From Dipteris shenzhenensis (taxonomy: Eukaryota): 64,000 nucleotides of DNA. Below are positions 12,801-64,000 of the stretch, piece by piece; within the stretch, counting starts at the first letter, position 1, and each line of letters begins with the position of its first letter. The stretch lies in assembly GCA_047967505.1 (NCBI GenBank), contig CM106538.1; one strand, written 5' to 3'. A model generated the notes under the pieces. The model did not search any database. It was not told the origin of the DNA and saw only the letters and a list, made by a program, of their open reading frames with translations. The translations under genes were made by a program, and so were the position numbers.

Positions 12801-13914
12801 CATATGTCTTCAATATGCTTCCAGGCAGGAGAGTTTGCAGGAGTTCTCCACTTGCCATCGGTTGATCGATGGGAGGAATGCCATGACATGAGCTCTGCAA
12901 TGGATTTGCACTTGAACATATGTTGGATGCAAGGGACTATGGGAAAATGTCGCAAAACCTTACGAGGCACGTCCGAAGTTTTGAGATCTGCTCTATATCT
13001 TGCCTCTCCACAAGTAGGGCACTCTCTTGCATCCTTATGTAGTCCACAAAACAAAATGCAATCATTGATGCATGCATGGATGCACTTGTAATCTAATCCT
13101 CCAAGAGAGGTCACATGTTGCCTTGCCATATCTCTTGAGGTCAGTAATTTATTCTCCCTTGGAAGCATTTTACATAATAGCCTGCACGTGAAGACCATAA
13201 ATGAGGAAAAGCATTCGAGTAATTGACCCACTAGCATAATTCACCATGTTTGCAAAATAGACTTTAAAGCTTACTTGAGTAATGCATTCAAACTTGCATT
13301 GCTTCATCCATAGATGGTTTGCAAGTTTAGTAACTCAAGGGAGGCACGTAGAATAGAGAAAGTACACCTCTCAAATAGTGGAGTCGATGCTGTGGTAAAA
13401 AGATAATCCTGCTCCATGCTATCATCCCTCCCTTCGGATTGATGGACATATAAATCCCGCACCATATCATCAAACACCTCCTCCTCCATGGCTTTATGAG
13501 GTAATGGCAGAGGGCTACTTCACTCCATACATCCGTAACGGTCCCTCCTAAAGATCCCACCTCATATCACCGATGCTTCGCCTCCTCACGGTGAGCATAG
13601 GGCAACATATGCGGGTGTGGCACTACATCCTATATCAAATTAAAATGGGATCATAACTCAAACATATGAATACCCATAGGTATCTCAATCAACCTTAACT
13701 CTTTAACACTTACCATGTTTACGGTCGCATCCCATTCTCCATACTTTGAGATGTGATTGAGTGTAATCCTACATGCACGATACATGTTTCCTGGACATCG
13801 ATCACACATACATTTGATTTTTTGCTCCAACCACATCTCACGATGGTGGATACGGAGGGATTCATCCTCACTGGAGCTAATTGTTGAAGATGAAGACATC
13901 CTACAAACAAACAA
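9843..13914 (-). pseudogene. CACTA transposase TnpD-like (Transposase_21, DUF4218- and DUF4216-like regions), multi-exon, with stops
   Basis: IHACINDCILF..CPTCGEARY, LRHFP, LRLGLGMDGVNPF, SVWPVILVNYNLPP, DVYLEPLIDEL..LW, HDFLGY, LDPMHIFKNV, HLIVHL, FLERFMK.LK.FV..ARPEGSMAEG and acidic C-terminus. In-frame stop at 12509-12511. Confidence 0.92.
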
Positions 13915-19574: not shown

Positions 19575-19742
19575 CTTCACCATAAATAGCTCTCGTTTTG
19601 CAATTTCGTTCGAACCAAATATCTAAAGCATTTCTTGGGACTTGTAATTGATTTTTTTCAACTATAGCATTTGCTACTTACTTTGTTATCGTTATATTTT
19701 TTGTAAGCATCAATTGTTGTTACAATTTCATTTGTTAACACT

Positions 19743-20885
19743 ATGGATGTAGAGCAACTTCTACTAAAGAAGAAATTGATGAAGCATTCATCTTTCATGG
19801 ATAACAATCCTTCCAACACAAATGTACTCAGTTGCATTGTGCAAATTCTTCCTAGTGTAACATATGACCAATTGTTGAGAACATTATTTGAGAGTGTTAT
19901 TTTAGAACCTTTGAATTCTCAAAATCCATGGAACATTTTCCAAACAATATCAAACGAGCCAATCCTAACAATTGGAAAAGTAAAAAATTTGCTTGTAAAC
20001 ACTGCTACCTCCATAGCATTGACTGTAGATGTCCTTAAGCAATTTAATTTGTTATTCGGTACATCTTTCACCTTTCTATCCTACAATGGGAAAAACCTTC
20101 AAGTAAAAGCAAAAGTAGGTTGTGCAAAAAATAAGCCGACAAATTCTCTGTTGTTGGAACAACAAAATCCCACTTGCTCTATTATTCCATTGGTCAAAGT
20201 AGATGCAAAACTTCCCTACCAAATATGGAATGAAGAACACCAACAAAATTTAGAAGACACAGTTTTGCAAAACCCAAGTTTGCCTGCAAAAGATATAGCT
20301 TTATTGTTCCACTCTTCATCTTCAAAACATGCTTACACAATCCAATCTACCTTAACCAAAATATATAAAGTTAGGAAATTTGTTCTTGAACCTATGCATA
20401 CTCCGATGAAGATGAACACACTACAAGAAGAGCTAAACATTCACAAACAACAAACATGCAAGAGAAAAAGAAATGAGAACAAAGCAGAACCACAATATAT
20501 AAAGAAAATACTCGATACTCCTAGTTTCCCATGTACTTGTTGTGGCTCCCTAAAGTTCTCCATGAAAATGAAGAAGCTAAAACAACATATGGCAATATTT
20601 CTCCAAAGCAACAAAACTAACATTCCAAGAACTTGCGTAAGAAGAATGTTATGTTCTCTTTGTTTTAAAGATGTTAAAAAAGGAATAATGCCATTAATGT
20701 GCACAAAGAACCTCACAATGGCCCAAAAGAAAGTTCATACAAGCAAACTCAATGACATGGAGGCACGATTAGTCTCCATTAGAATACCATTTGCTCAAAT
20801 TCGCGAGCTCTCCTATGAAGGGCAATTTGGCTTACATGGATTACAGACCAACAAAACTTCTCTCTACAAAATAACAACCATATGA
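19743..20885 (+). CDS. N-terminal part of a Helitron/Helentron Rep-helicase polyprotein (Cys-rich, DUF6570-like), truncated by deletion
   Basis: 380-aa ORF with FPCTCCGSL, LCSLC and LNDMEARLVSIRIPFAQI...GQFGLHG, a pattern that precedes the Rep domain in Helitron-type proteins. Rep and Pif1-helicase motifs are absent. Confidence 0.6.
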   Translation: MDVEQLLLKKKLMKHSSFMDNNPSNTNVLSCIVQILPSVTYDQLLRTLFESVILEPLNSQNPWNIFQTISNEPILTIGKVKNLLVNTATSIALTVDVLKQFNLLFGTSFTFLSYNGKNLQVKAKVGCAKNKPTNSLLLEQQNPTCSIIPLVKVDAKLPYQIWNEEHQQNLEDTVLQNPSLPAKDIALLFHSSSSKHAYTIQSTLTKIYKVRKFVLEPMHTPMKMNTLQEELNIHKQQTCKRKRNENKAEPQYIKKILDTPSFPCTCCGSLKFSMKMKKLKQHMAIFLQSNKTNIPRTCVRRMLCSLCFKDVKKGIMPLMCTKNLTMAQKKVHTSKLNDMEARLVSIRIPFAQIRELSYEGQFGLHGLQTNKTSLYKITTI

Positions 20886-21502
20886 CTTTACAATCTCTAA
20901 ACACATGAGCACTCAATTCACATTACGAGGACATACTTGAAGAAAAAAGTTTGCTTCATGCAAAAATTTTATGCCTCCAAGAATTGCATATCAAAGACAA
21001 ACAAACAATCTCTTTGCCAAACTTCACATGTTTGCAAAACAACAAAGGAATTGGTATTGCAACATGTTTCAAAAGTAACTTCACATTGCAAACCCAAGAA
21101 TACATAACCATCAAACAAACTAAATGCTTGTTAATAATATTCACAACAAAAAAACAATCACAATTCGCAATAATTAACGTTTACAAGTCACCTTCCTCAC
21201 CGCAATCAACACTAATATCTTCATTGCAAACAACTCTCGCTCAATTTAATATAAAAACACCAACGTTCATCTTAGGTGACTTCAACATTGATTATAATTC
21301 CAAAAATATAAATACAACAAAACTTTATCAATTCCTCCATAAACAAAACTTTCACCAACTCATAAACGACCCAACAACTATACATGGGTCCACAATTGAC
21401 CATATCTGGACAAACATTAAAAAAACAACAATTCTAAGCAGAACAAACTACATATATTGGTCCGACCATTCCCTTGTTTACACACCTTTGAACATTGACT
21501 AG
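20886..21502 (+). CDS. Apurinic/apyrimidinic (EEP-family) endonuclease domain, C-terminus of the Helentron polyprotein (frameshifted)
   Basis: ILCLQE, INVYKSP, ILGDFNID, STIDHIW and WSDH motifs. The stop codon overlaps the right sub-TIR, and no RT domain follows. Confidence 0.85.
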
Positions 21503-21767: not shown

Positions 21768-22944
21768 TCAAAGCACTGCAGCTGATAGGTGAGGGTTGTT
21801 CATCACTTTTGGAGCTAGTTTCATCTTTTCATTCACCTCTGATTGCTCCAACATATAAGTCCACCGGTCTTGTAAAAGATAAACAGTGGCCATGATTGCA
21901 ACTTGAATAGAAAAGAGCACGTTCCATATTTTCAGACTCTTTCGGACATGGTTCTCATATAATGTGAGGCCGATGTAGGTGTTGATGATACCGAGGATGA
22001 TTGTAACGTGCCCGAGGAGCCAATGCGTGAAGTACCAATACCCTCTTGCGGGACTCCCTCTGCGGTGTAGATAAGGATAAATCAAATACGCAGTGAGCAC
22101 AGAATTGCGGACACGAGGAGGTGGGATATATTGCAAAGTAGAATAGATGTTAGAATCGAGAACCGGTACGAGCTTTACCTTTTAGGCCTCAGGAATCCAA
22201 CAATCGGCGCCAGCCAAGCTGAGAGGTACAGCGCCAATCCAAGCCTGTGATGTGTATGACGGAATTTATTTCCGAAGTACTTAAGTGAGATAGCTCCTCC
22301 GATCACTGAGAATCCGACCGCCAGGAGCTAGAACGAATTGGACGCGAAGCATCAAAATCAATGGGACGATGGTCAGTAGCTGCTAGCTCACTGCTATTGT
22401 GACGAGAAAAAATGCAAAGAGAGGAAAGAACATCCGTGCGAGGGTTGTAAGCTCGAGCTGCGTGCGGAACAAGCGGCATGGCAAGAAAGCTTAACCGCGA
22501 AGAGTGAGATCTAGAAGGATTCAACGTCAGACCTGCAAGACAAAATGGGAGTAGTATAACGCCTCCATTCTTTTCGGGGACGCCCCGCTTTCAGCCGATA
22601 TTTTGGACATTCTGATGATGATGGTTCCGAGCGGCATAAGAAAGCCCATGGAAACCCACAACAGCCAGCCATGGGCTGCTTCCATAGCCAACTCGTGCTG
22701 CAAGAACAAAATAAAAACGATAAGCCACCTGAAAGGAAGGTCGTCAACTCAATTGTGGCAAAGTCTGGCACGGCGATCGCAAGATATCGTACAGGAATGA
22801 GAGGTGTACCTTACGACGCGCAGTGAGGGTAGCATTTTGGGTCTGAGCGGCAACAGGCAATAGTTGCACGCAAAGATTCAAAGACAGCAATGCCCAGAAG
22901 ATAGGCAGACGTGAAAAGCGAAGGAGAAAAGCAGTGGCCTCCAT
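21768..22944 (-). CDS. Cytochrome b561 domain-containing membrane protein (246 aa, 4 exons: 22944-22810, 22697-22533, 22327-22179, 22059-21768)
   Basis: All introns are GT-AG and the spliced frame is intact. N-terminal signal-like segment, AAHGWLLWVSMGFLMPLG, YSHFVLQ, HTHHRLGL, FLRP.RG..R..WYFTHWLLG supply the four heme-ligating His positions of cytochrome b561. Region retains CpG. Confidence 0.93.
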
Positions 22945-41520: not shown

Positions 41521-44339
41521 GTGTATGATGTGCTCATCAAACATCTTGCGTCCTGTTCACTTTCTATAGATGTCCTTTTTAAGAAACTCTCGTATTTTCA
41601 TGCCAAAACATCACCACTAATGCAATGACTTCCACACTTAGGCTGTCTCTCCTTTTCTTGCATTCTGTTGAAGGCCATAGACTACTCGGGAGTCAGATCA
41701 GGATGATAGGGCATTGCTTCCGCTTTGCGTGCATCTTGCGAGGTGTTGGTAGGGTTGTCACTCTATGAACTTTAGGGTGTAGGCTAAATCTTGCAAAGAC
41801 TCAAGAATGGTATTTACCTGAATGGTTTGATGTTGCTTGCTCAAATGCTACCACCAATCATGACATCACAGCTCATGTTCTTCGCTCTAATGGCAATGAT
41901 TAAATATGTGCATCTGCAATTGCTTCCTGTTGATGCTCTGTAAGGAGTCTTCTGTTCCTTGTGCCCTGACTAAGCTTTTCATCTTTTCTGTGTCGCAGCC
42001 TCTGTTTGCTTCTCTTACAAGCCACGGTAAGCTGCATGTTGCTAAGCAAAGAATAGAAGACAACTTACTCGAAAGACGACAATGCCAAACCCAAGACGGC
42101 ACAAGGTCACATCAAGGTGGGTGCAGGCTGCAGGGCAGAGGCAGGTTGCAAGTACTTAATCTTATAAGATTTGATGGGCGGCTGGTGTGAAAATACAAAA
42201 TTTGCAGGAGTAACAAAATTTTAAACTGCCGGTTTTTCCCCCTCTGACGATACATGTCAGTAGAATTGGATATCCCAAACAAGTGCAATGTGGTCACAAA
42301 TGCTTCAAAATGCAAATAGAACAAAGGGCACGCTATTGGGTTTGATGTTGTGTATTATGAAATGCAATGACCTTTGGCATGCTTATGAGCCATATAGCAA
42401 GTAAGTGCATGGAAAAGAAATAATTTAAAATTGTAAATAGTGTTGGATTTATTAAAAGATCTTTGCACATGCACAAATTGCACATTTTCAAATTATTCCA
42501 TTTTATGGTGAATCTAGATCTCATCTAGATACCAATACCAACAACTATCAATGTTTTAAGACCACCATGCAGTAGTCCCACTAGTTTGGATTCCAAATTT
42601 TTAATCTGTTTTGGTTTTCAATAAATAAAAAAAAAGTTATGGAGCGTGCCCTCAAATGGGAGTGTGTTATTTTAGCACAGCATTGGAGGCACATTAATCC
42701 ATACCTAATGTTCTCATTTAGGTGTGTCCTTGGGTTGAGGAGAAGTCACATAGTGTACTTTTGAATGATTACTTGGTTGCATGTATGTACATAACAAAAT
42801 TTTGATGTTTTTGAATAAATTGCTATATCCTATTGTCTTTAGGATGCATGCTTCACATGCAGCATAACACTTGTAGTGCTTTAATGATCTCGCTCCAAAT
42901 CCTTATTCCATAAATTTTTGGTATCATGTTTAAGTTTGGAATGTGTACTACAACTTGAAGACTAAGTTTGTTGAGCAATGCATAAGTTATGGGTCATGCA
43001 AGATACCTATAAATAGAAAAGTCCCTGAACCTCACCAAAAATGGTTACACCCAAGCAAACAATGACCCCATTGACTTATCCCCAAACAAATAAGGATAAA
43101 ACACATACATTATGTCTTGTATCTTGCACCTTGTACTCCATTATATTTTTGAAAGCATATATAAACTATTTCAAAATATGGTCTTGGATTTCCTTTAGGA
43201 GTTGTGGCATGGATATAAAATTCCAAATCTCTTTCTCTATCAAACCATGGTCAAACCTATGATATGAAGCAAGGCAAGCTTATGAATCTCAATCGAAAAT
43301 GAAACCTTCGGTGTCTCAATGGATAATTGAACATTGATCTAAGGCATACAATAATCATTACGTAAGAACACAAACATTCAAAAGAAAAAAAGAAAGATAA
43401 GCCCTAAAAAAAGTAAGTTACCATGTATACACATTGATTATAAGGATTTCTAATCCAATGTTGAACATTACAATCTTCTTTTAAATCCACTTTATAGAAA
43501 GCTTTCCCTATCTTGTTGAAGTATATAGTATGACGAAAATGCTTCATAGACCTTCTAGCATGGCTTTACCTAAGAATGGTGAAATAAATTGACTTTCCAT
43601 TATAGTATTATACCCATTTTACATATGATATTAAGGTTATGAAATCATGGTAATGTTAAATATTAATTTTTGACAATTCCAATGAGCGTGATCTAGTTGT
43701 TAAGATGGAAAGATGGTATCCATGGAAGTAGTAGATGAAAATGTACACACAAGGTAGTCATAGTAGATTTCCCCCTCAGGGGATTCACTCTTTATTAATG
43801 GGGGATGTCACCTGCGTGCATGAACTTCAAGAAAACCCCCTATTTAAGATCCATGTAGGATGATAAAACACCCCTATTTAAGTTTATAAGATACCACCCA
43901 AATTCTATTATGTCCCCCCCCCCTTTCCTTAAATCTACATTCTTTCTCAAGCATTTAGATTACACAATAAGCAAATTTAGATTACTTTCCCTATGACTAT
44001 TTAAAACTATACACAAAACCAAACTTGTTCGAACTAGTTACCCAAGGTAGCCTATACTATGTCCCCCCCCCCCCCCTCTTGAATATGGCATGGCCCCCCT
44101 AACTTAAATTCAATATTGGGAAAAAATAAAAAGGGCCCCCACCCCTAATGTATAAGCTTATGCCTCATTTTAAAACACCCTCCTATTGTACACTCACGTG
44201 ATATCATAATTTTCCCTTCTGGGGCATCAACTCAATATGTATTATGTTACTACCCTCGTCCAAAATCTAGGGTATGGAGGGACAAGGTCCACATATAATA
44301 TGCATGGATTTTCTCCAAAAACTTTATTTTATTTTTTGC

Positions 44340-45650
44340 AAAAAGAAGGGCTAATTATATTACTTTCGAAACAAGGATTACAAGAGACTCAACAGCAATG
44401 CTAGAGCACAGGGATAACTCCCACCCGCGAAACTACAAGCCACACAGGGCTAAGCATAAAACTGTTGCAAAATGCTGTCAAAACAAGAAGCCCTAGTCTG
44501 GGTCTTCTAAAAACCAGTAAACCGCGAAACCAAAAAAGCTACGGATCCCTGATGAAGTGAATCCTGGAGGTACTCGTGATCCAAGAAAGTATGGATCCCT
44601 CCTCCGTTGAGCTCCCGTCCATCGAGCCCGCCCAAGGGAACCAATAGGAAAAGACTCGCCTGCATGAGCAACCACCTTCTCGTGGGGGGCGAGTCTGCAC
44701 TCCAGTAGCCCGCTCCACGCATTTGCAGGCCTCAATCCAGTTGGGGTGCCTCCTAGTACGACAAGAAAGAGTAGAGCCCCAAGAGAAGGGATCAACTCTA
44801 GGAGCCTTGCGGATAGAGCCAAGAGCCGCCCTGTGGGTAGAAAGTCTTCGAGACAGTGAACCATCAACTGATATGACTCCTCTGAGTCAAACATCTAGCA
44901 ATCGAGGCTGGTCATGACCAAGGTGCCAACCATGATCAAGAACCCCTGCTAGGAAGAAAGCAGTGAAGCCACGTTGAGGTAGCAAGGTTCCACGAGCCGA
45001 TGTAGCTCCGAGATAGGAAGCGCCAGGATCCCTGTTGTCGAGCTTGACCATCAAGAAGAGCTCTTGACCACCATGGGGGCAGGCATCTCGCATCTCTATC
45101 TCCTTGAGCTCGAGGTAGTACCAAACCTTTCCTCGACAAAAGGTCCCGAGCACACACGACGCTTCTTGAAAGATGTTCTTGCTGCTGCGATGAAGGTGCA
45201 GGTGATGCAAGCCGCTGCGATAGAGGAGCAGGCTATAGCCAACAATGCTCCCCTTCGAGGAGGTGCAATGCCCCAAGCCACGGGTGGCATGAGAAAGCAA
45301 CTTGCACCTGCAAGCCCTACGTGAATGAAGCATGCCCCAACAAGAGGGCAAAGGGTGCAGACCACCCAACCCGCCACTGGCTAGCTTTGTCGCTAGAGGT
45401 GAACCACCATCACATGATCGAGGTTGCTCAAAGGAGGTCTACGGAGGCCCAGGCGAGGGAGGTTCCATTGAACTCCAGCCGTTGCTGCCATCAGATCGAA
45501 GAGGGGTGCCAGGCGAGGTGGAGGAGGGTGAGGGAGGGGAAGTGGAGGAAGATGGGGGGGAGGGGGGTGAAGCGGTGTGCAGGCAGTGAGGGGCCGTGGG
45601 CGACGGGGTTGCAGCAACAGGGAGGTGGGAAGGTCACGACGCGTTCAATT
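44340..45650 (-). mobile_element. GC-rich retroelement-like fragment, possibly a deleted non-LTR (LINE) copy
   Basis: Sharp switch to GC-rich, CpG-containing sequence with several overlapping reading frames and an A/T-rich boundary near 44330. No diagnostic RT or EN motif recognised. Confidence 0.3.
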
Positions 45651-48600
45651 GCAATCTTCTTGCTTTCTCCGAAAACTTTAAATATGCAAGGGAAAAATAT
45701 GACAATCTCCAGTTCTCCCTACCACAAAGCAGAAGGTTTACACTTCAAAAAATATGAAAGATTTTAAGATTTGTACATATTATTCATACTATGTGAGACC
45801 CAATGGGAGGTCTTTTGGATGAGGGAGGTTAAAACAAAAGATACACTAAAATATAAAAACCCGACTCCTTTCAAAATCATGTAACTTTTCCAGGTGTTAC
45901 CCAAATTTCAAGGTATAAAGACATATTTGAAGCTTTTTAGTGTAGCACACAACCAAGCTAATTTAACAAACTTTTACTCATGGCATATTGTTAAATTCAT
46001 CTCATACTTAAAATTTACATAGCTATTATTTCTGAAGGGTATTCCATCTTGAATCATAATCGGATCCCTCAAGTTGGTGCCCCATGATTTCCCCCTATGA
46101 ATCCCCTGGGATTTTTCCATGAACACGTAAAGATGAGTAGCAATGATTGTAATCATCGATGGTTTCTCCAGAATCACCACATCTTTATGTTATATTGCAA
46201 TTGTTTGAAGGCTCATTATCACATTGACTATGAAGCTATCTTCATGTGCAATAGTATAGATATGTACCATAGTATAATATACAGAAGGTTTGCTCGCACA
46301 CGCCTATCTGGATTCTATTTATTGGAAGGATTAGTTACTTCTTTACTCGACTTTTCCTTTTGTCATGATAAAAACACGTATGAGTGAGCTGTCAATACTA
46401 ATATCAAGTAAATACTACATGCATTTCATGATTCATGCATTAAGTCTTATGTAATAGTCTCCCCTATAACTAGATTTTATCATAAAAGTATTATATTAGT
46501 AACAATTTATCATATATCTTCTTCCACTAGATTTTACTTTGCAATAGGGTACAAATTAGAGGGGAACATAGTTTGGAAATGTAGGTTATTGGGAAAATAT
46601 TTCAAGAAGATAGCTGTGGAATTGTACATCATTGGGCAAACTTCTCCCAACATAGAGTAACAGACATTAGCCCATGTTACCATTTTAAAGACTTCAATGG
46701 GTTTTAAGTATACTTAAACTTCATACGCAGGTTTTTAATAAGCTAGAATCTGAAAAATATAATCTTAAATTGGGTCCACATGATTTGTGCCAATCGATTT
46801 GAGTACTTAGAGGGATAAATTTGGATATTCTATGAGACAGTTATGTTAATTTTTGGGTGAATTTATCAAATTTAAAGATATAAATATTAGCCCAAGCAGC
46901 TTGGAGAAGGCTCAAGATTCACATTGGGCTAATATTTTTCCCTATTTTTTCCTTGCTTTGAGAAGGAGGATGGACCATGATCGTAACTTGTTTTCCTTTT
47001 TGCAATCCTACTCTAAATAGATTATCTATACCCACACACTACCTCACGAGAACCAAAGGACCATAAGTATACTCATCGATTTTGTAATAACAATCATCAT
47101 GGGATTACTTTTGAAGTGCTTAAAGTGAAATTATTTTCTCACATCTAATTATTAAGATCATCTATCATAAGCTTACTTTTTAATTGCTCAAAGTGGAAAT
47201 ATTTTATGAGTACATCTCATGAGATGAAGAACGTGCTATACTCAATGTATGGCAAGCAAATGCAATGCATTGAATAATACATATATGTTATTTTTTGCCT
47301 TTGGGCATGAGACAGTATAGATAGCTGTCCATATAAATCCCTCGATGTAGATGGTTGTAACATTTTACCCTATTAGATTCATTAGCAACTTTCTTGATAA
47401 TTCCCTCCACCAATCATCTTAAGAACTTCACACATCATCTCTTAGTTCCTTTGAAATTGTCAATGCCCATTGTCCTAGTTATATCTCATCGAGAAATGGG
47501 CTCTTGGCTTAGATTCAATGCATATATAGCCCCCCTCAAGGTGGGGCTATCGAGCTGTTTCCACGGCACAGGGGTGAATGCAACACCCCTCCTCCTCCTC
47601 AGCGCCACCGGTGGAGGTGGGTTGAGCAACAGCCACTTGCCTTTGTTGTTCCCGAGCATAGAATGGAGATAGAGGTAGAAGAGCCAGCGCAGACAATTAA
47701 CACAGAGGCAGAGACAGAAGACGTTTGCATGGAGGGCAGGGTGAGAGTTGATTGGTGGATGCCCTACCCGAGACTACAGGTTCAACTCTCGAGGCTGCAG
47801 GTTCATTTCTCTATGCAAGTCTCACCCAGGAGGCCCTTTGGATCCAAGGAAATTCGTTGGATTCATTCTACCACCATTGGCTCAGAGTGCCATTTGACGT
47901 TGTGGCGTAAGAACAGCACACATGTGGCTATCTTGCAAGAAAATGGCCCATTTATCCCTCCGTGGAAACAAGCAGTATGTGGTGCAATGAGATCATCACC
48001 CGAAATTCTATGATGTCGTTTCTTGCACCATCTACGCTTTCTTGATTGCTTGTGGGAGGTCACCCCATGATTTTAAAAAAAAGATGCAGCAGCCAACAAC
48101 CTATGGCTGAGGCTCAGGCTATAGCCCTTCTTTTGCTCCAACAATTGGTCAACTGATGGGTTGCACTTGCACTAGGTCTTGCATCTTCCCAAGATCTCTG
48201 TATCATGACCATGTACTGTATCGATCGTCATCGCGCGTGCCTCCAAAAGTTTAGGACTTTCTCTTCGAGGTAGATTTGGTGAAAAGTTGGCTCATCTACG
48301 TAACCTGCCTAAAACGACTGCCACTAGAAAAGTAGTACCGCCCAACTCTTGCAAGCTTACGACGTAATGCCCGGGACCAGTGGTCACAGCTCATATTCTC
48401 ATATTCTAGTTCTCAATCTCTCGTCGGTGTCGATTTCAGATGCACACTATGAAGGCATGCGCGGATGGCAATTGCAGCTGTACTGAAAACACACCATACC
48501 GATGATGATGAGTCCTTTTAACGTAGGAGCAGGAGCTAAGACGGATCAACTGACTATTGAAACCCCCCACTCACAAACTATCTTTTGCATAAAGAGAGAG

Positions 48601-54705: not shown

Positions 54706-54951
54706 TCTCAGGGGGGTCACTGCCTGACAAATATGTAAGCATAGCATGTGGGTTCAATAGAAGGGATTTTTAAACTCCGTTTTTTGCACATTTTTTATAG
54801 ATTGAAGGGTACCATTTTATAGGGGGTATTAATAGATTGAATAGAAAAATGGCATGCTTTATTCATGGAAAACTCGCAGATAAGGGACTTCTAAATTAGG
54901 TCTTGAATGCACTTGATATCATAGGATTTACATGTAGTAAACCCCCTGAGA
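54706..54951. mobile_element. 246-bp MITE whose ends match the putative terminus upstream of the RAG-like transposase
   Basis: Perfect 10-bp TIR TCTCAGGGGG...CCCCCTGAGA, extended by tcact/ttact. The reverse complement of 54830-54950 aligns over ~115 bp with 56990-57105 (ttcaag.ccta.tt.a.aa..cccttatctg.ga.tt..; t.ttcaatct.t). No TSD recognised. Confidence 0.65.
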
Positions 54952-57900
54952 AATTACTACTTATTGCTTGCTCCTCTTGAGATATTATTGTAAAAAAATT
55001 CTAAATGGTTACAGAAAATAAGAGAGAATATAGAGAAAGTGCACAACTAAACAAGAAATGAGCAATATAGAAATAGGAAAGAGCAAGAAATGAGCAAGAT
55101 GGAAATAGAAAAGAGCAAGCAAGGGTGAGAGAAAGGAAGTGCTTTCTCCATGATTATGAGAGAAGAAAGAAAGTACTTTTGCAACAAGATGAGAAATGAA
55201 ATGCACAACTATACATTGATGAAATGGAAGCAAAAAGTTGAGAACAGGAAGAGAAGAAGATGATGACAAAAAATAAGTGTTTTTGCCAAGATCTGAAAGA
55301 TTTGAAATAAAGTGATTAGGGAAGGGGCTGTAGTTATTATATTCTCCTCATGACACATTTAATATAATTGATAAAGTGGAGTGAAATATTTAAAATACAT
55401 TTTTGGAGATAGGATTGATATAATCATTATATTCTCATAATGAGCTATTTCATATAATTTAAAAAATCATGAGACATTCATATAATATTTAAAAAACATA
55501 TCAGCACATGATCCTTGTGCATTCGGGGAATTTTCTCAATTACAAATCAACATGAAATAAACATTACAAGCACATGCTCCTCATGCGTTGAGACATTTTT
55601 TAGTATAACTACAACACAACATCATCATGAGATATTTCATAAAATTAAAAAATATCACATGAAAATATAGTTGTAATTCATATTGAATGTGTTTTTCTTA
55701 CACAAAAATTTGGCCATTTAGGCCATTTGCATGCTTCAAAACTTGTATAATTTATCAATGAAGAATGTTGGGTAGACTCATCTAATGCTTCTTTGGAGGC
55801 AGTGATGCTTTGTGTGTAGATTGTATCTTTGACACTTTATTTAAGCCTTTCTTTTAGCCTCTAATATGTGTGAACTACATCTTTGTTGCTTCATTCATGC
55901 CTACAATAGAGAAAAACCATGTGAAGTCTTTGGGAAATGCCTCTTTGATGGCTTCTACTATTTGTTGATTAGCATACCTTGCCCTGAATATATCATAAGA
56001 TGTAAAGGTGATGGAGAAGGCACACCACGCTTGTCCTCTAGATCAGTGACTTGTAGTGGTATAGTTGAAAGTAAAGAAAAGCACCATCATTCTTCCAATT
56101 TCCTAAGGATACACACCAAAAACTCCATGCCCCACTTCTCATGGCTAGCTAACACTCAAACAATGAGGTGTGGTGAAGAGTAGCCCTAAAAAATATTCAT
56201 CATGAAAAGTCCCTAAAAAGAAAGTAGAAGCTACTATGCCATACTTGGAGTGATGGAGCTACAACAACAAAAGGAACAGGGACCCTCAAATGACCGTCAA
56301 ATGCATTGGTTTACAATCTCCAATGCACAAATTACACTAGAAGTAAGAGAACAAAGTACTTGTGCATGAATGATGAAAACCATGTGATCTAGTAGCAAGT
56401 AGAGGTCAATCAAGATGTCAAGAAGAAGGAATAAATTGGCATGCATGGCCATGCACGCCAATAAGGCATCCATGCATACACCTCAATTCATTGTTACCCA
56501 CTAGAATAATACCTTCAACTTACTCATGACCTCATGGACTCATGATGTCATGCACTTTGAGGAAGGGTGGGTCAAACATTGATGTGGGGGGATCCACATG
56601 CCATATGCACATAAGACAAATAGGACTCCCTGATATCTATCCTTAGGCATTGACCATTGTCCCCACAATTTGGATGCTTTGCATCCAATTGATTCCAGCT
56701 CCTCACGGTCAGACTCTCTGTGATTAGAGGATTAATCACTAAAGTAATTTGCAAATAAATTCCATCATACGCATGGATTGGTGTTGTATCTCTTAGCTTG
56801 GTTGGCACCAATCGTTTGATATGTAAGGCCTAAAAGATAAAGATTGTAATTGTTCTTGATTGTAAAAGCTATTCTACTTTACTATATCCCACCTCATGTC
56901 TACATTTATGTGCTTAGTAAGTATTTGATTTTCTTCTCATCTACATTGTAGAGGGAGTCCTACAAGAGGGGTATTGGTACTTAATGCACTCGAGGGGATC
57001 ACTATGTATAAACCCTATAGTGTGTTCAAGGCCTATTTATAAAACCCCTTATCTGTGAATTATTCATTAATGAAATGCACCCTTTTCCTATTCAATCTGT
57101 AAATGTTTTTCTAAAGTCCTTTTTACAACACCCTTTTGTCTATGAAAATGTGAGAAAAAATGAAGTTAACATTACAAAAAATTTGGGCTAAAAAAGGGAC
57201 CTATAAGGGAGCCCTTGGGCTGGTGACATGGAAGAATAAGATGAATAAAACCCAATAGAATATTGGCTGGTGGAGGGCAATAGAATATTGGAAGTGACAT
57301 GACTTCTCTATTTCCTTATTCAATGTCCCAAACAATGATGTGGAGCACCCACTTGCTACCTCAACTCTCCCATCACATTGTTTACTATATAACCAAACTG
57401 AGAAACCTAGTTTCTCAACCAAACTTGTACCATTTGACCCGAAACCAAATCCTCCCATTTAACTACCACACTCCTTTCATTCTCTCTCATTCCTCTTACT
57501 TCCCCCTCATTTCTAAGCACCATTTTGAATTTTTATTTGCTCCAGCCCTCTTTTTAAATTTCCTACTGGCTCTTGAGCAGGAAGCTTCTTTCTCTATTCT
57601 CCCTCTCATGGGATGGAATCTCATGCCAAAATCTCGTCACTTCTCTTCTCTACCTACATTTCCCTCCCATTTCACTCTCATTCTTTTAAAACTTTCAAGA
57701 TTTTTGAATGAGATTCAACTTACCTTCTCCTTTCTCTATTTTGGGCACTTCTCCTTCAAATCTCGCCACTTCCTCTCTCATTTGAGATTCTCCCACGATC
57801 TCAAGTGATTTCATTTAGGAAGATAAGGCAATCAATGTTCTGAGCAAGCCATGAATGATGCAAGGTGTTTGGAGCTTAGAAGGAGCTACTGGACGAGATT

Positions 57901-58134
57901 CTTTAAGAAAGGATCAAAGAAGATTGACTTTCAGGAATTGCAATTGCTAATGCATGAAAATCAATCTTTCTTTTACCCATCTCTCAATACTAGTCACTTT
58001 CCCTGTTGCAATCTCTAAGGGTGCATGATTTCAAACCATTTGTAAAGGTTTGGGGTCCATCCAGACAACTTGTATGGAGGTTGAGGTGAGATAATCTTTG
58101 GAACAATGCAACACAGTGATTATGATGAGATTTG

Positions 58135-58900
58135 TTTGTTAATGATGTAACTTTGAAGAAACAGTTAGTTCATAGTTCATTTTGTGTAGTTGTGTTGTTT
58201 TGTTTTATTACATGGTTTGAAAATGTTGAAAATTTTGTTTGTTTTGTAAGAAATTCCATGAGAAATGAGTCTTTTCAACTCTTACTATCAATAGTTTTCT
58301 ATAGAATATTGCTTAAAATAGATTTCAAGATGTTCGGGAGCATATAATTTGTTTAAATTAAAGCAAGAACCATCAACTTCACCATTCCTAGAACACATTT
58401 GGGACCACTGGGAGGGACAAGTTTGCTAACATTTTTCTTTCATAAAACCTTGCTCCAAGAATCAGGTACTGTTCATTCATGTAGTTTTAGAATGTTTTTA
58501 GTTTTCAACTCAAATCAGGGTCTATCAAAGCAACTTGCATGGAGATTCAGGTGAGAAAACCTTTAGAATAATGCAAGACAATGAAAATAATGAGATTTTA
58601 TGATGCAATTTTGAAGAAGCAGTTAATTTGTAGTTTGTTTTGGTAATTGTGCTGTTTTCTTTTAATACATGATTTGAAGAGGAAGAAAGATTTGTTTGTT
58701 TTAAAAGATACACTCTTACTATTGAGATTTTTTTAAGAAGATGGTTTGGAAGCATATAATTAGTTTTGGAGAAAAATCCATCAACTTCAGCAACCTGGAT
58801 TACAAGAGGGACCTTTGAGGAGGACAAGTTTGATCACGTTTTTTCTTCCAAGATCCCTGTGAGGTATTGTTCATTCCCATAGTTTAACAGTGTTTGATGA
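58135..58900. repeat. Diverged tandem duplication (two copies starting ~460 bp apart) in the putative first intron of the transposase
   Basis: ~58135-58500 and ~58600-58900 share gaagaa.cagtta.tt, tacatg.tttga, tttgtttgtttt, ctcttactat, gcatataatt, catcaacttca, ggacaagtttg and ggta.tgttcattc in the same order. Confidence 0.7.
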
Positions 58901-59061
58901 TAAGTAAATGTTTTTTTGAATTTGTAGATTTCAATCATTAGATTTTGCATGCAATTGGGGTTTTCATTTTTGCTTGGTTTGATACTTTTCTGAAACATGT
59001 CATGTTTGTCATCATCAATGTTATATTATATTTGTCATCAGTCAATGTTATATTATATTAG

Positions 59062-61866
59062 GTGGAAAGTGCATGAAATCATGTAAACCACTCAGAATTT
59101 AAAGACGGTTGATATCCATTTTCAAATAGATGTAGAGAATGCACCATTTTTAAAGAGGAATGAATCCTCCTTAGTAAGTGAAAGTGATTTAGTAGCTCTT
59201 TGAAATCAAGGAAAAACACATATGGATTTGTGTTTAGAAGGGAAAATATATCCAATAGATTCACAAACTTGTCAGACTCCTCAATTCTATGGATTGACTA
59301 GCTTAATAAAGCTCCTATGTAAGGGTAAGAATGGTTTGTTAAGATATTGTTGAAGTTTGATTGGTCATGGAGCAAGTAGCCTTCACAGCCAATCTCAATC
59401 TTTGCTTAATGAAAGAGACAAAAGGATCGCAATGTTGGAGGCTTGGAATCAACGTTTGATATCATCTATGCAATCTAAAAGTGTTAAAATTTTGCATATG
59501 ATGGCATAGAGAAGAAAAATCAAGAATTATAGGTAAAGGTTTAAACATTAGATGCTCAATTGGGAGAGAGCACTATAGATGCAATTCACTTATAGATGCA
59601 AAACACAGTTCTGAAGGATGAGATCAAAAAGTTAGAAAAAACATTATCATTCATGAAGGATACTCCAATGGGTCCAAGACTACATAAGAGGAAATTGCAT
59701 CCAATGGATGAAATATCCAAGAAAACTGATCACTCGAAGTGTCGAGTGAGAGCTTGTAGGACTGTTTCAGAACTCATGTCTATCCATGATGAGCACTATG
59801 GCGCTATGGGTGAAGTGTTTATGAAAAAAATGTTGGAGTCTGCTGTTATACAACATCCAAAATTCAAAAGTCTAAAATCAAAGATAACATCTGAGTCAAT
59901 GAGCAAAGTTGAGCATTTCAATGCAACTAGTGCACAAGGAGTTTGTGATATTGTAGGGATAAGTACGTGGGTATATCGGCTCATATTTAAGAGCTTAAAG
60001 ACAACATGTCTTTCTGTGGGAGGAAAAGTTAAAGCCCCGCTTCCTAAACTAATTGATGTTGATAAGGCCAGGCATGCACTCAATTTGGGCATACTTGATT
60101 TAGTCGGTGAGCCCCAGCATGTATGTAGTACACTAACTTTGAAAACAAAGGCTAGAGAGTTTAAAGAATTGGAATTGACAGTCAAAAATAACTTTGTGAT
60201 GAATGTTCAAAGAGTTTTGCAAGCCATGGTGAAGTTTTACAATATGCCTATGGAGGAATGCAATAGTACTCTAAAGATTGTACTAAAGCTTGATGAAAGT
60301 GAGGTGGTCAAAGGTCAAAAATTAAAACGAGTTAGTTTGACAATGATCAATAGAATACTGGACCTTGAAGTTGAGCTTGATGATGCAAGACAGTTCAATG
60401 TGCAATCAGAATAGGAGATTTAGTGGTTGGCTGCCTTTGAGGTATGATGGAAATTTGAATTTTAATGTAATAATGTAAAAAGACTTAGAATATTTGAGGA
60501 ATATTTTGAAATAACATGTGAGTTTTTTTTTGCAGGTGCTGAAAGAGTCACATTCAATTTTGAAGTGGTTTTTTTACCAAACCGATATCCCAAGTGTGAT
60601 CAAAGGTCATAACAATGGTGAGCTACTTGAAGTTGAGGGCTATGGATCCTACCGTGTAGAATGGCATCTAGATGCTGACCTCAAGACTATTAAATGTATG
60701 TTTAATGTGGGACATGGAGCAAATACAAGCCATCCTTATCCACTATGCATGCAAATGAGAGTACCTGCAAAGGGTGGTAAAAAGAATCAAAAGCAATGGG
60801 CCTTTGAACTTGCAGAGATAGATCAAACTAAGGCATCGGATACCGATGCTCTAGGGAAATATCCATCATAGAGCCCAATTCTTGAAATTCCTCTTGAGCG
60901 AGTACACGTTTATGCGCTTCATGCTATTGTGAGAATAATTGAAAAGTTGATGCATCTCTGTACATCATCGATGCATATAACTTGAAGCCCTAACAAGAGA
61001 GTGAAAGGATGATTGCAAGAATTGAAAAGGTTCTTTCAAATATGGGATTACACTCTAGGCAAGTAAAGATTACAAAAGATGAGAAAAGATGTGGAAAAAT
61101 AGGCAATGTTCCTTCTAATCCAAGCTTTGGTGGTGTCAAGGCTTTAAAATTCCTTTCTTCAAAGAAGAAGAATGACAAGCTCAAATGTGCTAATGAGTTT
61201 GATGCATGGAGAAAGTTACACAATGCCTATTGTGAATGAGGGGGGAAGGGACAAAAAAGATTGGAAAAGGCATGAGCGTGGTTAGCTCTTGATAGCTTGG
61301 TACCTTTACTACAAAAGAAAAGATTCGAAGATGATGATGCATAGTGTTTCATCAATGATGTGAATGACTTTAGCCGGAATATGGAGATAGCTTGGGGAAA
61401 GAATCATTTCACACAATACATGGTAATCTCTAACTTGGACATTGAGATGTGCATATTGAATGGCCCTATATTTACTAAATTGTTTTTCTATTTGGCAGCA
61501 CATTTTAGATGCTCATGCACTATACATGGCATGGAAAGATCGCATTGGCAAGCGCATTGTGCATATAATAGAGTAACCCAACATGGGGGTGGTAGAACTA
61601 AGTCAAGCCCAATGGTTCAATTGGTTCAATGGGGGTACAGGCATATCAAAATTAGAGCAGCCGCAACACTAGCATTCAAAGAGTCCTTAGTGTCCCATGT
61701 AGTGCAAGATGTTAACACGAAACGTCGAAGAAGAATATACAACTCATCAAATGCAAGATAGAATGATGTAAGGTGGCGAGCAACCTGTCATAGACAAGGG
61801 TGCATATGGGTGGAGACACATGAAAATGATGGTGTAGACTCTTCCAATGTGCATGCCCATGCATAA
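59062..61866 (+). pseudogene. RAG1-core/Transib-like DDE transposase, intron-containing, inactivated by stops and frameshifts (possible upstream exon 57851-58085)
   Basis: Ordered motifs: LKIVLKLDES (D at 60292); intron 60442-60535; VEWHLDADLK (D at 60677); GHGANTSHPYPLC (decayed CxxC); VHVYALHAIVRI; FTQYM|HILDAH across intron 61423-61498; GMERSH (E at 61534). These parallel RAG1 VKESCDG, GYDEK, GSVYICTLC, IDALH, TNYFHKTLAH and EGNESGNK. Confidence 0.75.
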
Positions 61867-62048
61867 GTTTTAGAATCTCCTTGTAATTTTAGTAATGTGA
61901 TTTGCAGTAAAGCCAATGTATAATGGCCATGAGCATAGTACAAATTAGAAATTTTGAGTTATTGGATGTTAATTATAAGTATTTAGCTCAAGGTTGCACC
62001 AATTTTACTTCTTTTAGAGTTTTTATTAAAACAAGCATTTTTAAAAAT

Positions 62049-62081
62049 TAGGGTTTTGGGCCCTATATAAAAGAATGGGCC
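62049..62081 (+). promoter_or_regulatory. Compact plant promoter: telo-box, site II, TATA box, site II
   Basis: TAGGGTTT (62049-62056), TGGGCC (62057-62062), TATATAAAA (62064-62072), TGGGCC (62076-62081), then a pyrimidine-rich leader to the ATG at 62204. Confidence 0.55.
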
Positions 62082-62203
62082 CTCATTTTCATTTCATTGT
62101 TTAAAGAGCTCTCTAGTCCCACACCACCTCCCACTTGCCCCTGACATTTCCACCCTATATTTTGCACCCTCACCCTTTCTCTCGCACACTCTCTCCATCC
62201 CCC

Positions 62204-62951
62204 ATGGCCAGGCGCAAGATCAAGGCACCATAAAGACTGGCACAACCAGACCCACCTCTAGACTCAAAGACAAAGAATGATAGCCTCCCCCCCTCTCCCC
62301 CGATGATCCCTGTTGAAGGGAGAAACTGCCAATCCGAAAGCCAGACAGGGAGCAAGGAGTAAGCCCACAGACAGAGGGGCAGAGGAAGGCACAAGAGGAT
62401 CATTATGCAGAGGCTGATGACTCAGAGAGCACAGAGGAGGAGCATGAGGAAGAGGAACAACGAAGGACAGAGCAAAGGAATAAGGCAAGAACAGACAATT
62501 AGGGTCCACGCCAATGGGGGATAGGACACCAAGCTCTAGATCCATGGCAAAGAGGCCCTCAACATCTAGGAAGAGGCCCTCCACATCAAGGGTAAAGAGG
62601 CCCTCCTCCAGTGAGGTGATACAGATTCAAGCTAGGGACAGTGGCACTTTGGGAGATCAGAAAATTTCAAAAGTCCATCGATCTACTCATCTTGATTGTG
62701 AGCTTCGCAAGGGTGGTACGGTCATGTAGAACCTCAATAATAGCTCAACCTCTCGATTTTATAGGTGCGGAGTTATGGAGGCTCCCTAGCGTATTTCTAG
62801 AGATGCCTTACTTACCATGCAGCATGCAACTAAGGTCTACCTAGTAGACCTCATGGATGACACCCAGCTAGCTACCATCCATAGGAAAACGATCGTGGTG
62901 ACCGCAAAAGACATGTAGTGTATTGTATGCTCCACCTTGGGTGATAGTTAG
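62204..62951 (+). pseudogene. Divergent histone H3-family (CENH3-like) gene with a long N-terminal tail, pseudogenised
   Basis: Starts MARRKIKAP*RLA. The histone fold reads R*YRFKLGTVALWEIRKFQKSIDLLILIVSFARV (62614-62715) and, after a possible intron (62716-62764) and a frameshift, RISRDALLTMQHATKVYLVDLMDDTQLATIHRKTIVVTAKDM (62790-62915). This is colinear with H3 [68 protein letters not shown]. Confidence 0.85.
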
Positions 62952-63065
62952 ATTCATATGCTCTGCCTATGGGCATCTGTCTTGTATCAGCCTCTTTTCA
63001 ATATAATAAAATGTCTATTATCTTTGTATGTGCAATCTCAAATTTATTTTCATTGTATTTGTAAT

Positions 63066-64000
63066 TGTTGGGGTAAAGGGCAGTGTGCCCACCCACTTGT
63101 ACAGTTGCCATGTATACTCATATATATATGATAGAGGAATAAGCTGGAGTAGCTTTTGCTCCACCACTTTTGGTGTCTCCTTATTCCTTTGTGTGTGCTC
63201 TCCTCTCCCACAACTGGTATCAGAGCAGGTCATGGTGTTCGGTCTGCAGGGAGCTTCGCGAGAGCTTGTGGTGTGTGCGAATCGAGCATTGAAGGAGCTT
63301 TGGATTAATGTTTCTCGTGGAGAAGATGGGACAGCCATAGCTATGTTGATCTGCTGATCTGAGCTCCGGGAGCTCGAGGAGAAGAGCCTGAGGAGAGAGT
63401 TCAATGCAGCCATCGAGGGAGCCCAGGCTGTTGAGGCACCCATGAGCGTGTGTTGCAAGACACTGTTGTAGAGCCGTGAGTAGGAGTGGTACCTTGTTAT
63501 GCCTAGTGGCTCTATTCTTGTTCTACAGAGGGTTAGACATATACCAGGACTTGCTACGAGCAAGATCAGTACTGGACAGTTGGTTGAGGTAGGTTATCAT
63601 GTCTCTTTGGGTGATCATGCATGGAAAATTGCTAGAGGCAATCTGGTTATGGCTAGGGGATCACGGGTTGGATTCTCTTATGCATTGCATGTATCAGGTG
63701 TCCAGGATAAGATGCTTATGATTAGTAAGCAGCCATCAGCTAGTTTATGGTATGCCAGACTTGGACATATGTCTACTGCAGGTATGGAAGCCCTTACAAC
63801 ATTGAGATACATTCCTGTTATGGATGTCTCTCAAATTTTATGTCATGATTGTGATGATGGTCAGCAATTAGGATCCTCCTTTGTGAGGAAGATAGTCAGT
63901 GAGAGATATCTTGAGCCATTGCAGTTGGTTCATAGTGCAGTTTGTGGGCCTATGCCTACCGTTTCACTGGGTGGCGCCTCTTACTTTGTGACATTTATTG
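63066..64000 (+). mobile_element. Ty1/copia retrotransposon 5' part: short LTR (63066-63212), PBS, deleted gag, GAG-pre-integrase and integrase start; runs off the window
   Basis: TG...CA LTR, TGGTATCAGAGC PBS at 63215-63226, then VRHIPGL...IS.GQL, LWYARLGHMS and LQLVHSAVCGPMPTVSLGGASYFVTFI. Confidence 0.9.

Follow-up and report, generated by a model that had tools for sequence, protein, structure and literature searches.

Genes for histone H3 inside DNA transposons are already known from fungi. hAT elements with H3-like genes were reported from Dothideomycete fungi, including the H3L element of Pyrenophora tritici-repentis (PMC3538342). In Pseudocercospora fijiensis and five further genomes, a 9.5-kb hAT element whose target-site duplication (TSD) measures 8 bp was reported to contain one or two H3-like sequences, and those of P. 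fijiensis are described as all rendered inactive through repeat-induced point mutation (RIP) (PMC6710886). In both reports the sequences are read as housekeeping-gene capture (PMC3538342, PMC6710886). The presence of H3 in a transposon is therefore not itself new. Here we analysed a stretch of 64,000 nt from contig CM106538.1 of Dipteris shenzhenensis (assembly GCA_047967505.1), in the following called the window. A locus starting at 56989 is very probably the dead copy of a cut-and-paste DNA transposon, autonomous and multi-gene, that had its own H3 variant beside a transposase of ~800 aa. The left end of this copy is intact; its right part is interrupted by a Copia insertion and truncated by the window end.

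As in the fungal elements, a transposase is combined with an H3-like gene and a further open reading frame (ORF), and movement would be by cut-and-paste with 8-bp TSDs. The fungal transposases contain hAT Pfam domains, whereas the family described here has none. The fungal H3 sequences, as reported, are recent captures, either near-identical or destroyed by RIP; the gene here is old and divergent, has diverged together with the transposase and is under purifying selection. The hosts there are fungi, while the window is non-fungal by its Copia, LINE and CACTA content. A core histone under selection inside a DNA transposon is rare, and the fungal cases have been treated as accidental capture.

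Transposons also borrow chromatin readers, such as chromodomains and PHD fingers, and VANC of the VANDAL/Hiun elements is an anti-silencing accessory protein that binds DNA sequence-specifically. By analogy, the element described here may be a further DNA transposon with an extra gene acting on host chromatin silencing, an effect that is hypothetical in this case; the extra gene encodes a histone, unlike the sequence-specific DNA-binding VANC. A survey of transposon-captured chromatin genes names, in its available text, readers and enzymes, not histones (bioRxiv 2021.11.30.470311). Neither the transposase family nor any H3-bearing transposon of plants was described in the literature that our search covered. 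This agrees with an earlier interpretation of the window (the sequence-only reading), which held that no such layout had been described for plants; fungal hAT elements with H3 are published (PMC3538342, PMC6710886).

Transposase and histone genes of the locus

The sequence and its reading frames were inspected over positions 56500-64000 of the window. The parts of the element that bear on the two genes are the following.

59114-61845, + strand: transposase pseudogene, near full length, corresponding to residues 10-806 of the relative P0102, with 8 in-frame stops and at least 1 frameshift
60442-60535, + strand: intron 1 (GT..AG), at P0102 residue 429; the ORF breaks at the same place in 7-8 related loci
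61423-61498, + strand: intron 2 (GT..AG), at P0102 residue 728, directly ahead of the HxxxxH motif; the ORF breaks here in ~9 related loci
62040-62203, + strand: promoter-like region (GGGCCCTATATAAAAGAATGGGCCC) and leader of the H3 gene, as read from the sequence
62204-62951, + strand: H3-variant pseudogene with a long N-terminal tail, histone fold and loop-1 insert (..SRFYR..), at least 5 stops and at least 3 frameshifts
62549-62606, + strand: 2.6 tandem copies of a 21-bp unit, translated as KRPSTSR repeats within the H3 tail

In a tblastn comparison, residues 10-806 of the full-length relative P0102 (813 aa) aligned at 59114-61719, and the match extended to 61845 when the transposase of the related locus L002 served as query. 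Since P0102 is covered from residue 10 to 806 and both introns lie at break positions of the family, the window gene is a near-full-length spliced pseudogene. The sequence-only reading had recognized such a spliced pseudogene, and the coverage, the two GT..AG introns and the eight stops confirm it.

An exhaustive HMMER search with ORF 59596-60411 as query returned 88 relatives, 23 of them at E<=1e-10 and the best at E 3.8e-26. Most are fragments from assemblies of sequencing runs; the full-length P0102 and P0120 (811 aa) were obtained by cluster look-up. The four longest frames of the region met no Pfam family, and a word-index protein search with the first exon of the window gene gave no match at near or longer lengths. 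Relatives of the transposase were absent from the prokaryote genome contigs and viral contigs searched. This absence, together with the conserved spliceosomal introns, identifies the family as eukaryotic nuclear. Two of the matching proteins, P0076 and P0032, are chimeric, with a piece of this transposase joined to retrotransposon domains (gag plus protease; integrase zinc domain). They are probably gene calls spanning nested insertions.

The H3-fold pseudogene follows the transposase on the same strand at a distance of ~360 bp (~340 bp in the sequence-only reading, which had placed it there). It starts with an ATG at 62204 (MARRKIKAP*RL...), contains no introns and encodes a long tail with an acidic stretch. 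The Pfam Histone model matched 62790-62915 above the cut-off (E 1.2e-6, 29.2 bits) and 62620-62841 below it (E 1.7e-4). The intact H3 of the related locus L003 detected the gene by tblastn at E 2e-19. Both genes are broken, and the window copy is inactive.

A TATA-like site flanked by GGGCCC lies ~130 bp upstream of the H3 start, and TATA-like sites were found at matching places in the related loci L002, L003 and L012. The claim that the histone gene has a promoter of its own thus stands as far as the site in the window and in relatives is concerned; its function as a promoter is putative and is read from sequence. TATA-like sites flanked by short G+C words (GGGACCTATAAGGGAGCCC, GGGCCCTATATAAAAGAATGGGCCC, GCACCTATAAAGGGGCACC) are present ahead of the transposase leader (57190-57215) and ahead of the H3 genes (62055-62080; 2140-2160 of L002), and may reflect a promoter design common to the family.

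C>T or G>A changes fit at least five of the eight transposase stops and two to three of the three stops in the fold region of the histone. This decay pattern had been read as a sign that both genes were silenced together. The pattern fits most stops, but it was rejected as evidence of joint silencing. The ratio of observed to expected CpG is low in the whole window (0.37; 0.24 in the element), and the decay is therefore not specific to the element.

Linkage of the two genes in related loci

Metagenome contigs were scanned with the transposase alignment, which gave 28 related loci. These were searched by tblastn with the H3 pieces of the window and then with the intact H3 of L003. Three of the 28 loci (L002, L003 and L025) contain an H3 gene that follows the transposase on the same strand. 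In L003 both genes are open, and the H3 ORF of 168 aa meets Pfam Histone at E 5.6e-34. In L002 the H3 (E 5e-58) has one in-frame stop, and the transposase is open over 699 aa. In L025 a truncated transposase is followed immediately by an H3 fragment (E 1e-4), which lies at the end of the contig. L002 and L003 stem from separate assemblies.

In a tree of the transposase core (31 of 34 rows kept; three rows with <150 filled columns left out), the rows nearest to the window were P0102/L001 and L002/L003, with 49% identity between the window and L003. Within this nearest clade, H3 was found in both loci with usable downstream sequence. L025 grouped with L012 and L026 at high support.

Between L002 and L003, identity is 64.5% for the transposases and 59-64% for the H3s, and nonsynonymous divergence (dN, Nei-Gojobori) amounts to 0.27 and 0.26, respectively. 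Synonymous divergence (dS) of the H3 genes is 1.26, giving a dN/dS of ~0.21; the synonymous sites of the transposase are saturated. By these sequence estimates the H3 of L002 and L003 is under purifying selection, and both genes are taken to have diverged at one rate under such selection. Equal dN and low dN/dS are as expected for co-inherited genes under selection. No site resembling the terminal repeat was found between transposase and H3 in the window at up to 3 mismatches.

These results bear on several proposals of the sequence-only reading. Its central one, that the histone is a gene of the element, is supported by the recurring gene order in L002 and L003, the equal dN, the purifying selection and the lack of a terminal inverted repeat (TIR) between the genes in the window (<=3 mismatches), where a right TIR had been named as speaking against it. 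It had suggested a search for intact copies and for dN/dS<1 in the histone fold; the L003 H3 is open, and H3 dN/dS between L002 and L003 is ~0.21. The count of how often the two genes co-occur, which it had suggested and which was run here on the metagenome loci, gave a divided picture, with H3 present in some (3/28) and missing in others. The H3 gene is accordingly a feature of some lineages of the transposase family and not of all. Since L025 groups apart from L002 and L003, the presence of H3 requires two changes on the tree, and in the course of its history the gene may have been lost from some elements or exchanged among them.

A third gene, which has a TATA-like site to itself, follows the H3 in L002 and L003. 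It starts MVRVKKTPTRTNQY in L003 and MVRRKITPRRLNPY in L002, and the two match each other at E 4e-6. Its first 50-90 residues are all that the contigs contain; they resemble the start of H3 and an ORF of L012. The latter (L012 2659-2888, + strand) lies ~280 bp beyond the transposase. Its first ten residues, MARTKQTARK, are those of canonical H3; an acidic stretch comes next, before the contig ends. N-termini resembling the H3 tail thus recur in the variant, in the product of the third gene and in the ORF of L012. This recurrence suggests host readers or writers of that tail as a common target. Of the proposed two-gene element, the H3 as cargo gene is retained and the gene number is revised, as a third gene follows H3 in relatives.

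The H3 variant family

With the L003 H3 as query, 12 cluster representatives of 62-94% identity were retrieved by word-index search. Their sources are all run or metagenome assemblies, and several of them represent clusters of 6-21 members. The length is 155-170 aa in eleven; the remaining one (P0221) is a 103-aa fragment. The next matches were canonical H3 at ~50%. Compared with canonical H3 (residues 1-136 of P0143, a database match), the variants show 44-50% identity over 127-135 aligned columns, and the fold has H3-type sequence from alphaN through alpha3, with a match of the L003 ORF to Pfam PF00125 at the E given above.

The N-terminus of the variants, M-(G/V)-R-x-K-x-C-A, resembles H3 residues 1-8, and the K27 and K36 regions of H3 have no counterpart. 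Loop 1 contains a 15-residue insert with (G/A)(R/K)FY, alpha-2 starts RW(S/T)AQALLAIQ.AAE.YLV, and a C-terminal extension, RNN.DAF..DPNMP, is conserved. The start of alpha-2 and the lengthened loop 1 look like those of CENH3/CENP-A. In contrast to CENH3/CENP-A, the loop insert is much longer, the tail start (M-x-R-x-K) is H3-like, the C-terminal extension is conserved and the gene is multi-copy and lies inside a transposon. The best PDB scores were those of H3/CENP-A chimeras (102 bits) and S. pombe Cnp1 (101 bits), with H3 at 94-97 bits. Resemblance to centromeric H3 is thus a lead, with a small score margin over H3.

Database matches named CENH3 or CSE4 were considered as CENH3 references and rejected, as they are tandem fusions of canonical H3. 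Many proteins of 270-290 aa among P0132-P0240 carry the misnomer 'histone H3-like centromeric protein CSE4/CENH3' and consist of two fused canonical H3; the fusion was verified in P0134, P0143, P0239 and P0240.

Ends of the element and target-site duplication

The boundaries were read from the left terminus, from two smaller elements in the window and from the sequence around the Copia insertion.

56651-56988, + strand: older repeat R1, the target DNA outside the element, with 75% identity to 22375-22024 on the other strand
56989-57002, + strand: left TIR CTCGAGGGGATCAC of the autonomous element, with the 14-mer pattern common to both ends of a miniature inverted-repeat transposable element (MITE); R1 ends at 56988
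56989-59113, + strand: 5' subterminal and leader region, in which a CCTATTTA motif (57032), TATA-like sites and an internal duplication of degenerate sequence are located
62952-63065, + strand: 3' flank of the H3 gene with AATAAA, still element sequence up to the Copia
63066-64000, + strand: Ty1/copia interrupting the element, with a short long terminal repeat (LTR), primer-binding site TGGTATCAGAGC at 63215-63226 (tRNA-Met type) and gag_pre-integrs (E 1.8e-7)
54707-54950, - strand: 244-bp MITE of the same family; both TIRs are present, the subterminal part is similar to 56994-57104, and the 8-bp flanks agree at 5/8
43775-46110, + strand: probable 2.3-kb non-autonomous relative with ends CTCAGGGGATTCAC and (other strand) CCCAGGGGATTCAT and two CCTATTTA motifs

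The sequence CTCGAGGGGATCAC at 56989-57002 fits the degenerate 14-mer pattern CTCAGGGGGKTYAC. Exact matches to this pattern in opposite orientation, at 54707 (+) and 54937-54950 (-), form the two ends of the MITE, whose interior shows 70% identity to the ~110 nt inside the left terminus (56994-57104 versus 54945-54828). R1 breaks off at 56988, and the R1 copy at 22 kb continues beyond the matching point; the first base of the element is therefore 56989, and the element is inserted into R1. A repeated terminal sequence had previously been placed at 56987. The repeat is confirmed and its start moves two bases to the right. The termini read CTCAGGGGG(G/T)T(C/T)AC and start with CTCAGGGG; no CAC heptamer was found at them.

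Three of the five CCTATTTA sites in the whole window are located no more than 100 bp inward of the termini at 43775 and 56989. The element at 43775-46110 has one end with 1 mismatch to the terminal pattern and the other, inverted, with 3 mismatches. Its interior is G+C-rich (44400-45650), with long ORFs on both strands that meet no Pfam family, and may be captured host sequence. The duplication in the leader (58053-58251 and 58518-58708) is degenerate at 77% identity; its copies are ~465 bp apart from start to start, and each has a GT-like splice-donor context.

For the TSD, flank matches were scored at lengths 2-10, and chance values were obtained by sampling the window. The 8-bp flanks agree at 5/8 in the MITE (chance ~0.04) and at 6/8 in the element 43775-46110 (ATTTCCCC / ATTTTTCC; chance ~0.006). 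In both elements the fraction of agreeing bases peaks at 8 among these lengths, and agreement at 5 bp is 2/5 and 0/5. The TSD thus looks to be 8 bp, as read from two decayed, imperfect elements.

The Copia LTR probably starts near 63066, judging from a TG at this position and the primer-binding site at 63215, and the ~115 bp after the H3 stop are therefore still part of the element. The Copia continues past the window end and appears to hide the remainder, including the expected third gene and the right terminus. The latter, ...GTGAYCCCCYGAG, would lie beyond the Copia, followed by TTAATGCA and then the rest of R1 (TTGGCTCC...).

Class of the transposase

In an alignment of 23 long sequences of the family, W471, H472, D476, K478, K481, C496, P523, H554, C556 and H559 (P0102 numbering) are invariant and C499 is nearly so. 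P0102 contains the motifs KLD379E, WHLAGD476LKTLKC, C496xxC499, H729xxxxH734 and WSTQGME753. In mouse RAG1, the catalytic residues are reported as D600, D708 and E962 and the zinc site as C727/C730 plus H937/H942 (PMC4914335). The spacings compare as follows.

D to D: 97 in P0102, 108 in mouse RAG1
Second D to first C: 20 in P0102, 19 in mouse RAG1
Second H to E: 19 in P0102, 20 in mouse RAG1
Second D to E: 277 in P0102, 254 in mouse RAG1

In P0102, D, D, CxxC, HxxxxH and E follow one another in the order known from RAG1 and at strikingly similar spacing, and a long insertion likewise separates the second D from the E. On this basis the transposase would be an RNase-H-fold DDE enzyme with D379, D476 and E753 of P0102 as candidate catalytic residues, and C496/C499 with H729/H734 would form a zinc module laid out as in RAG1.

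Structures of RAG1 and of a Transib transposase are contained in the PDB. PDB chains were searched at E up to 10 by phmmer with two window pieces, the L004 ORF and P0120, and by hmmsearch with the family profiles A4 and A6; neither search returned a RAG1, Transib or hAT chain, and the family had no sequence match to any solved structure. At the same threshold, P0102, P0120, P0016 and P0059 met no transposase family of Pfam, the RAG1 model included. Dimer_Tnp_hAT, DUF659 and related Pfam families were found neither in these four proteins nor in other homologues.

An 8-bp TSD would fit hAT, P and Novosib elements. It is possible, though doubtful, that the transposase belongs to a named but obscure superfamily, in the first place Novosib and otherwise a very divergent hAT, so that the histone cargo alone would be new. 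Both superfamilies make 8-bp duplications, the length favoured here. Novosib is described as the smallest DDE superfamily, with 10 transposases and Archaeplastida as the main host (bioRxiv 2021.09.26.461848), and as having no Pfam model (PMC5751038), which is consistent with the absent Pfam matches of our family. A rare group mainly of plants and algae with an 8-bp duplication would thus be similar; the likeness is drawn from such descriptions and not from compared sequences. The H3-carrying fungal elements are reported as hAT with 8-bp duplications (PMC6710886), which favours hAT. Against hAT stand the lack of any hAT Pfam domain even at E up to 10 and the D-to-D spacing of 97, which is nearer to RAG1 (108) than to Hermes (68).

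The sequence-only reading had taken the element for a RAG1/Transib-like one. Of this idea, motif order and spacing stand; the missing sequence similarity, the TSD and the termini speak against it, and true membership of the Transib/RAG1 superfamily is improbable. Local spacing is within one residue of mouse RAG1, with the two longer distances (97 versus 108 and 277 versus 254) as listed. Transib-like proteins have been reported from plants (n=39; PMC9435367), and the present family may be among them. Transib is defined in the available text by 5-bp TSDs and termini resembling recombination signal sequences (PMC1131882), whereas here the duplication looks 8 bp long and the termini start with CTCAGGGG in place of a CAC heptamer. 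Neither single sequences nor the two profiles matched a RAG1 or Transib chain in the PDB, and the Pfam RAG1 model was not matched. RAG2, the partner of RAG1, reads the H3 tail, which may be seen as an echo of the H3 link described here; the accessory gene in this case is a histone and not a RAG2-like propeller. The RAG1-like arrangement of motifs, in a family for which Pfam has no model, bears on the spread of RAG1-type enzymes outside animals.

Role of the histone and alternative explanations

If the locus is read as an autonomous element with its own histone, the transposase would bind the CTCAGGGG termini and the subterminal CCTATTTA motifs, excise the element and insert it with an 8-bp TSD. 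The element would make the H3 variant from its own promoter, and the variant would pair with host H4 in nucleosomes. Co-divergence with the transposase, conserved inserts of its own and an H3-tail-like next gene indicate a working role of the histone. As a first, tentative candidate, it may build variant nucleosomes without the usual K9/K27 contexts and thereby blunt silencing of the element by H3 methylation. Somewhat less likely, it may guide or tether integration, given the alpha-2 similar to centromeric H3 and the long loop 1. Less likely again is a function as architectural cofactor of the transposition complex; the rest falls to another role or to none.

Several observations weigh against this interpretation. 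An H3 fold was found in just 3 of the 28 loci. For 13 loci, the contig extends at least 400 bp beyond the transposase match; H3 is present in two of them, an unrelated ORF2 family instead in six (see below), the H3-tail ORF only in one and nothing recognised in four. L025 stands apart from L002/L003 on the transposase tree, and the branch joining the window to its nearest clade has a support of only 54. The window H3 has a tail ~90 residues longer than in the family and no C-terminal extension. The right terminus and TSD of the window copy lie outside the window; the position of H3 between TIRs is therefore taken from synteny and not seen. The related loci are short metagenome contigs in which termini are not visible, and a right TIR was seen in no locus. 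The 8-bp duplication is known from just two decayed elements, and the putative catalytic and zinc residues were assigned from motif spacing alone.

Passive capture of a host gene (transduplication), as in the fungal hAT elements and of no service to the transposon, has precedents with H3-like genes for which, in the available texts, no function is shown (PMC3538342, PMC6710886). The restriction of H3 to some clades of the family agrees with such a capture. Nevertheless, the variant is far from canonical H3 (44-50%), and its family-specific inserts are kept across the 12 representatives. Its ORF has stayed open at 62-94% identity, with a dN/dS of ~0.2 and a dN equal to that of the transposase, whereas a neutral captured gene at such divergence would be riddled with stops. 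We therefore regard passive capture as having only a small chance of being correct. It is hardly credible that a host pseudogene or retrocopy of H3, unrelated to the element, stands next to the transposase pseudogene by chance. In favour of this, the right TIR is not visible, the H3 has no introns and decay is alike across the whole window. Against it, gene order and strand recur in L002 and L003 from other assemblies, the window fold has the family-specific loop-1 insert (..SRFYR..), and a TATA-like promoter lies upstream as in the relatives.

A self-made H3 variant, should it enter nucleosomes, would give mobile DNA a new means of countering or exploiting the chromatin of the host, and it would be a natural tool for studying how H3 tails and loop 1 direct silencing or deposition. 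More tentatively, the element may represent an old eukaryotic lineage outside the well-described superfamilies that combines a RAG1-like layout with its own nucleosomal H3 variant, with features of centromeric H3, and a protein mimicking the H3 tail. If so, the element would make part of its own chromatin and thereby escape silencing by H3 methylation or steer its insertion, and RAG1-like enzymes would have been linked to the H3 tail earlier and more widely than through the RAG1-RAG2 pair.

Other genes and repeats

In six loci of other clades, an ORF2 of ~600 aa with the motif Y.LL.DI..LF.LRED..LAILA was found.

L004 3261-4884, L007 3105-4572, L010 3290-5120 and L019 3467-5347, - strand: ORF2, convergent to the transposase
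L011 1937-3094 and L021 3791-4030, + strand: ORF2, on the same strand as the transposase

The loci with convergent ORF2 form one clade of the transposase tree (support 99). ORF2 met no Pfam family, had no PDB match and is not present in the window. In the metagenome loci, no element ends were detected by inverted-repeat scans or by a search for CTCAGGGGG; these returned only palindromic subterminal repeats, in L004 and L010. These palindromic units lie beyond ORF2 (L004 5009-5257, L010 5051-5291), are repeated (e.g. ...AAAAAGGGGGGGTACC / GGTACCCCCCCTTTTT...) and may be subterminal repeats of those elements.

Elsewhere in the window, a CACTA-type transposase fragment is located at 12509-13237 (- strand; Pfam Transposase_21, E 2.5e-39). 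A LINE-like element occupies 19707-21499 (+ strand). A 392-aa ORF that meets no Pfam family precedes its endonuclease/reverse-transcriptase domain (20909-21499; E 1.4e-10), and the second R1 copy (22024-22375) lies just downstream of the element.

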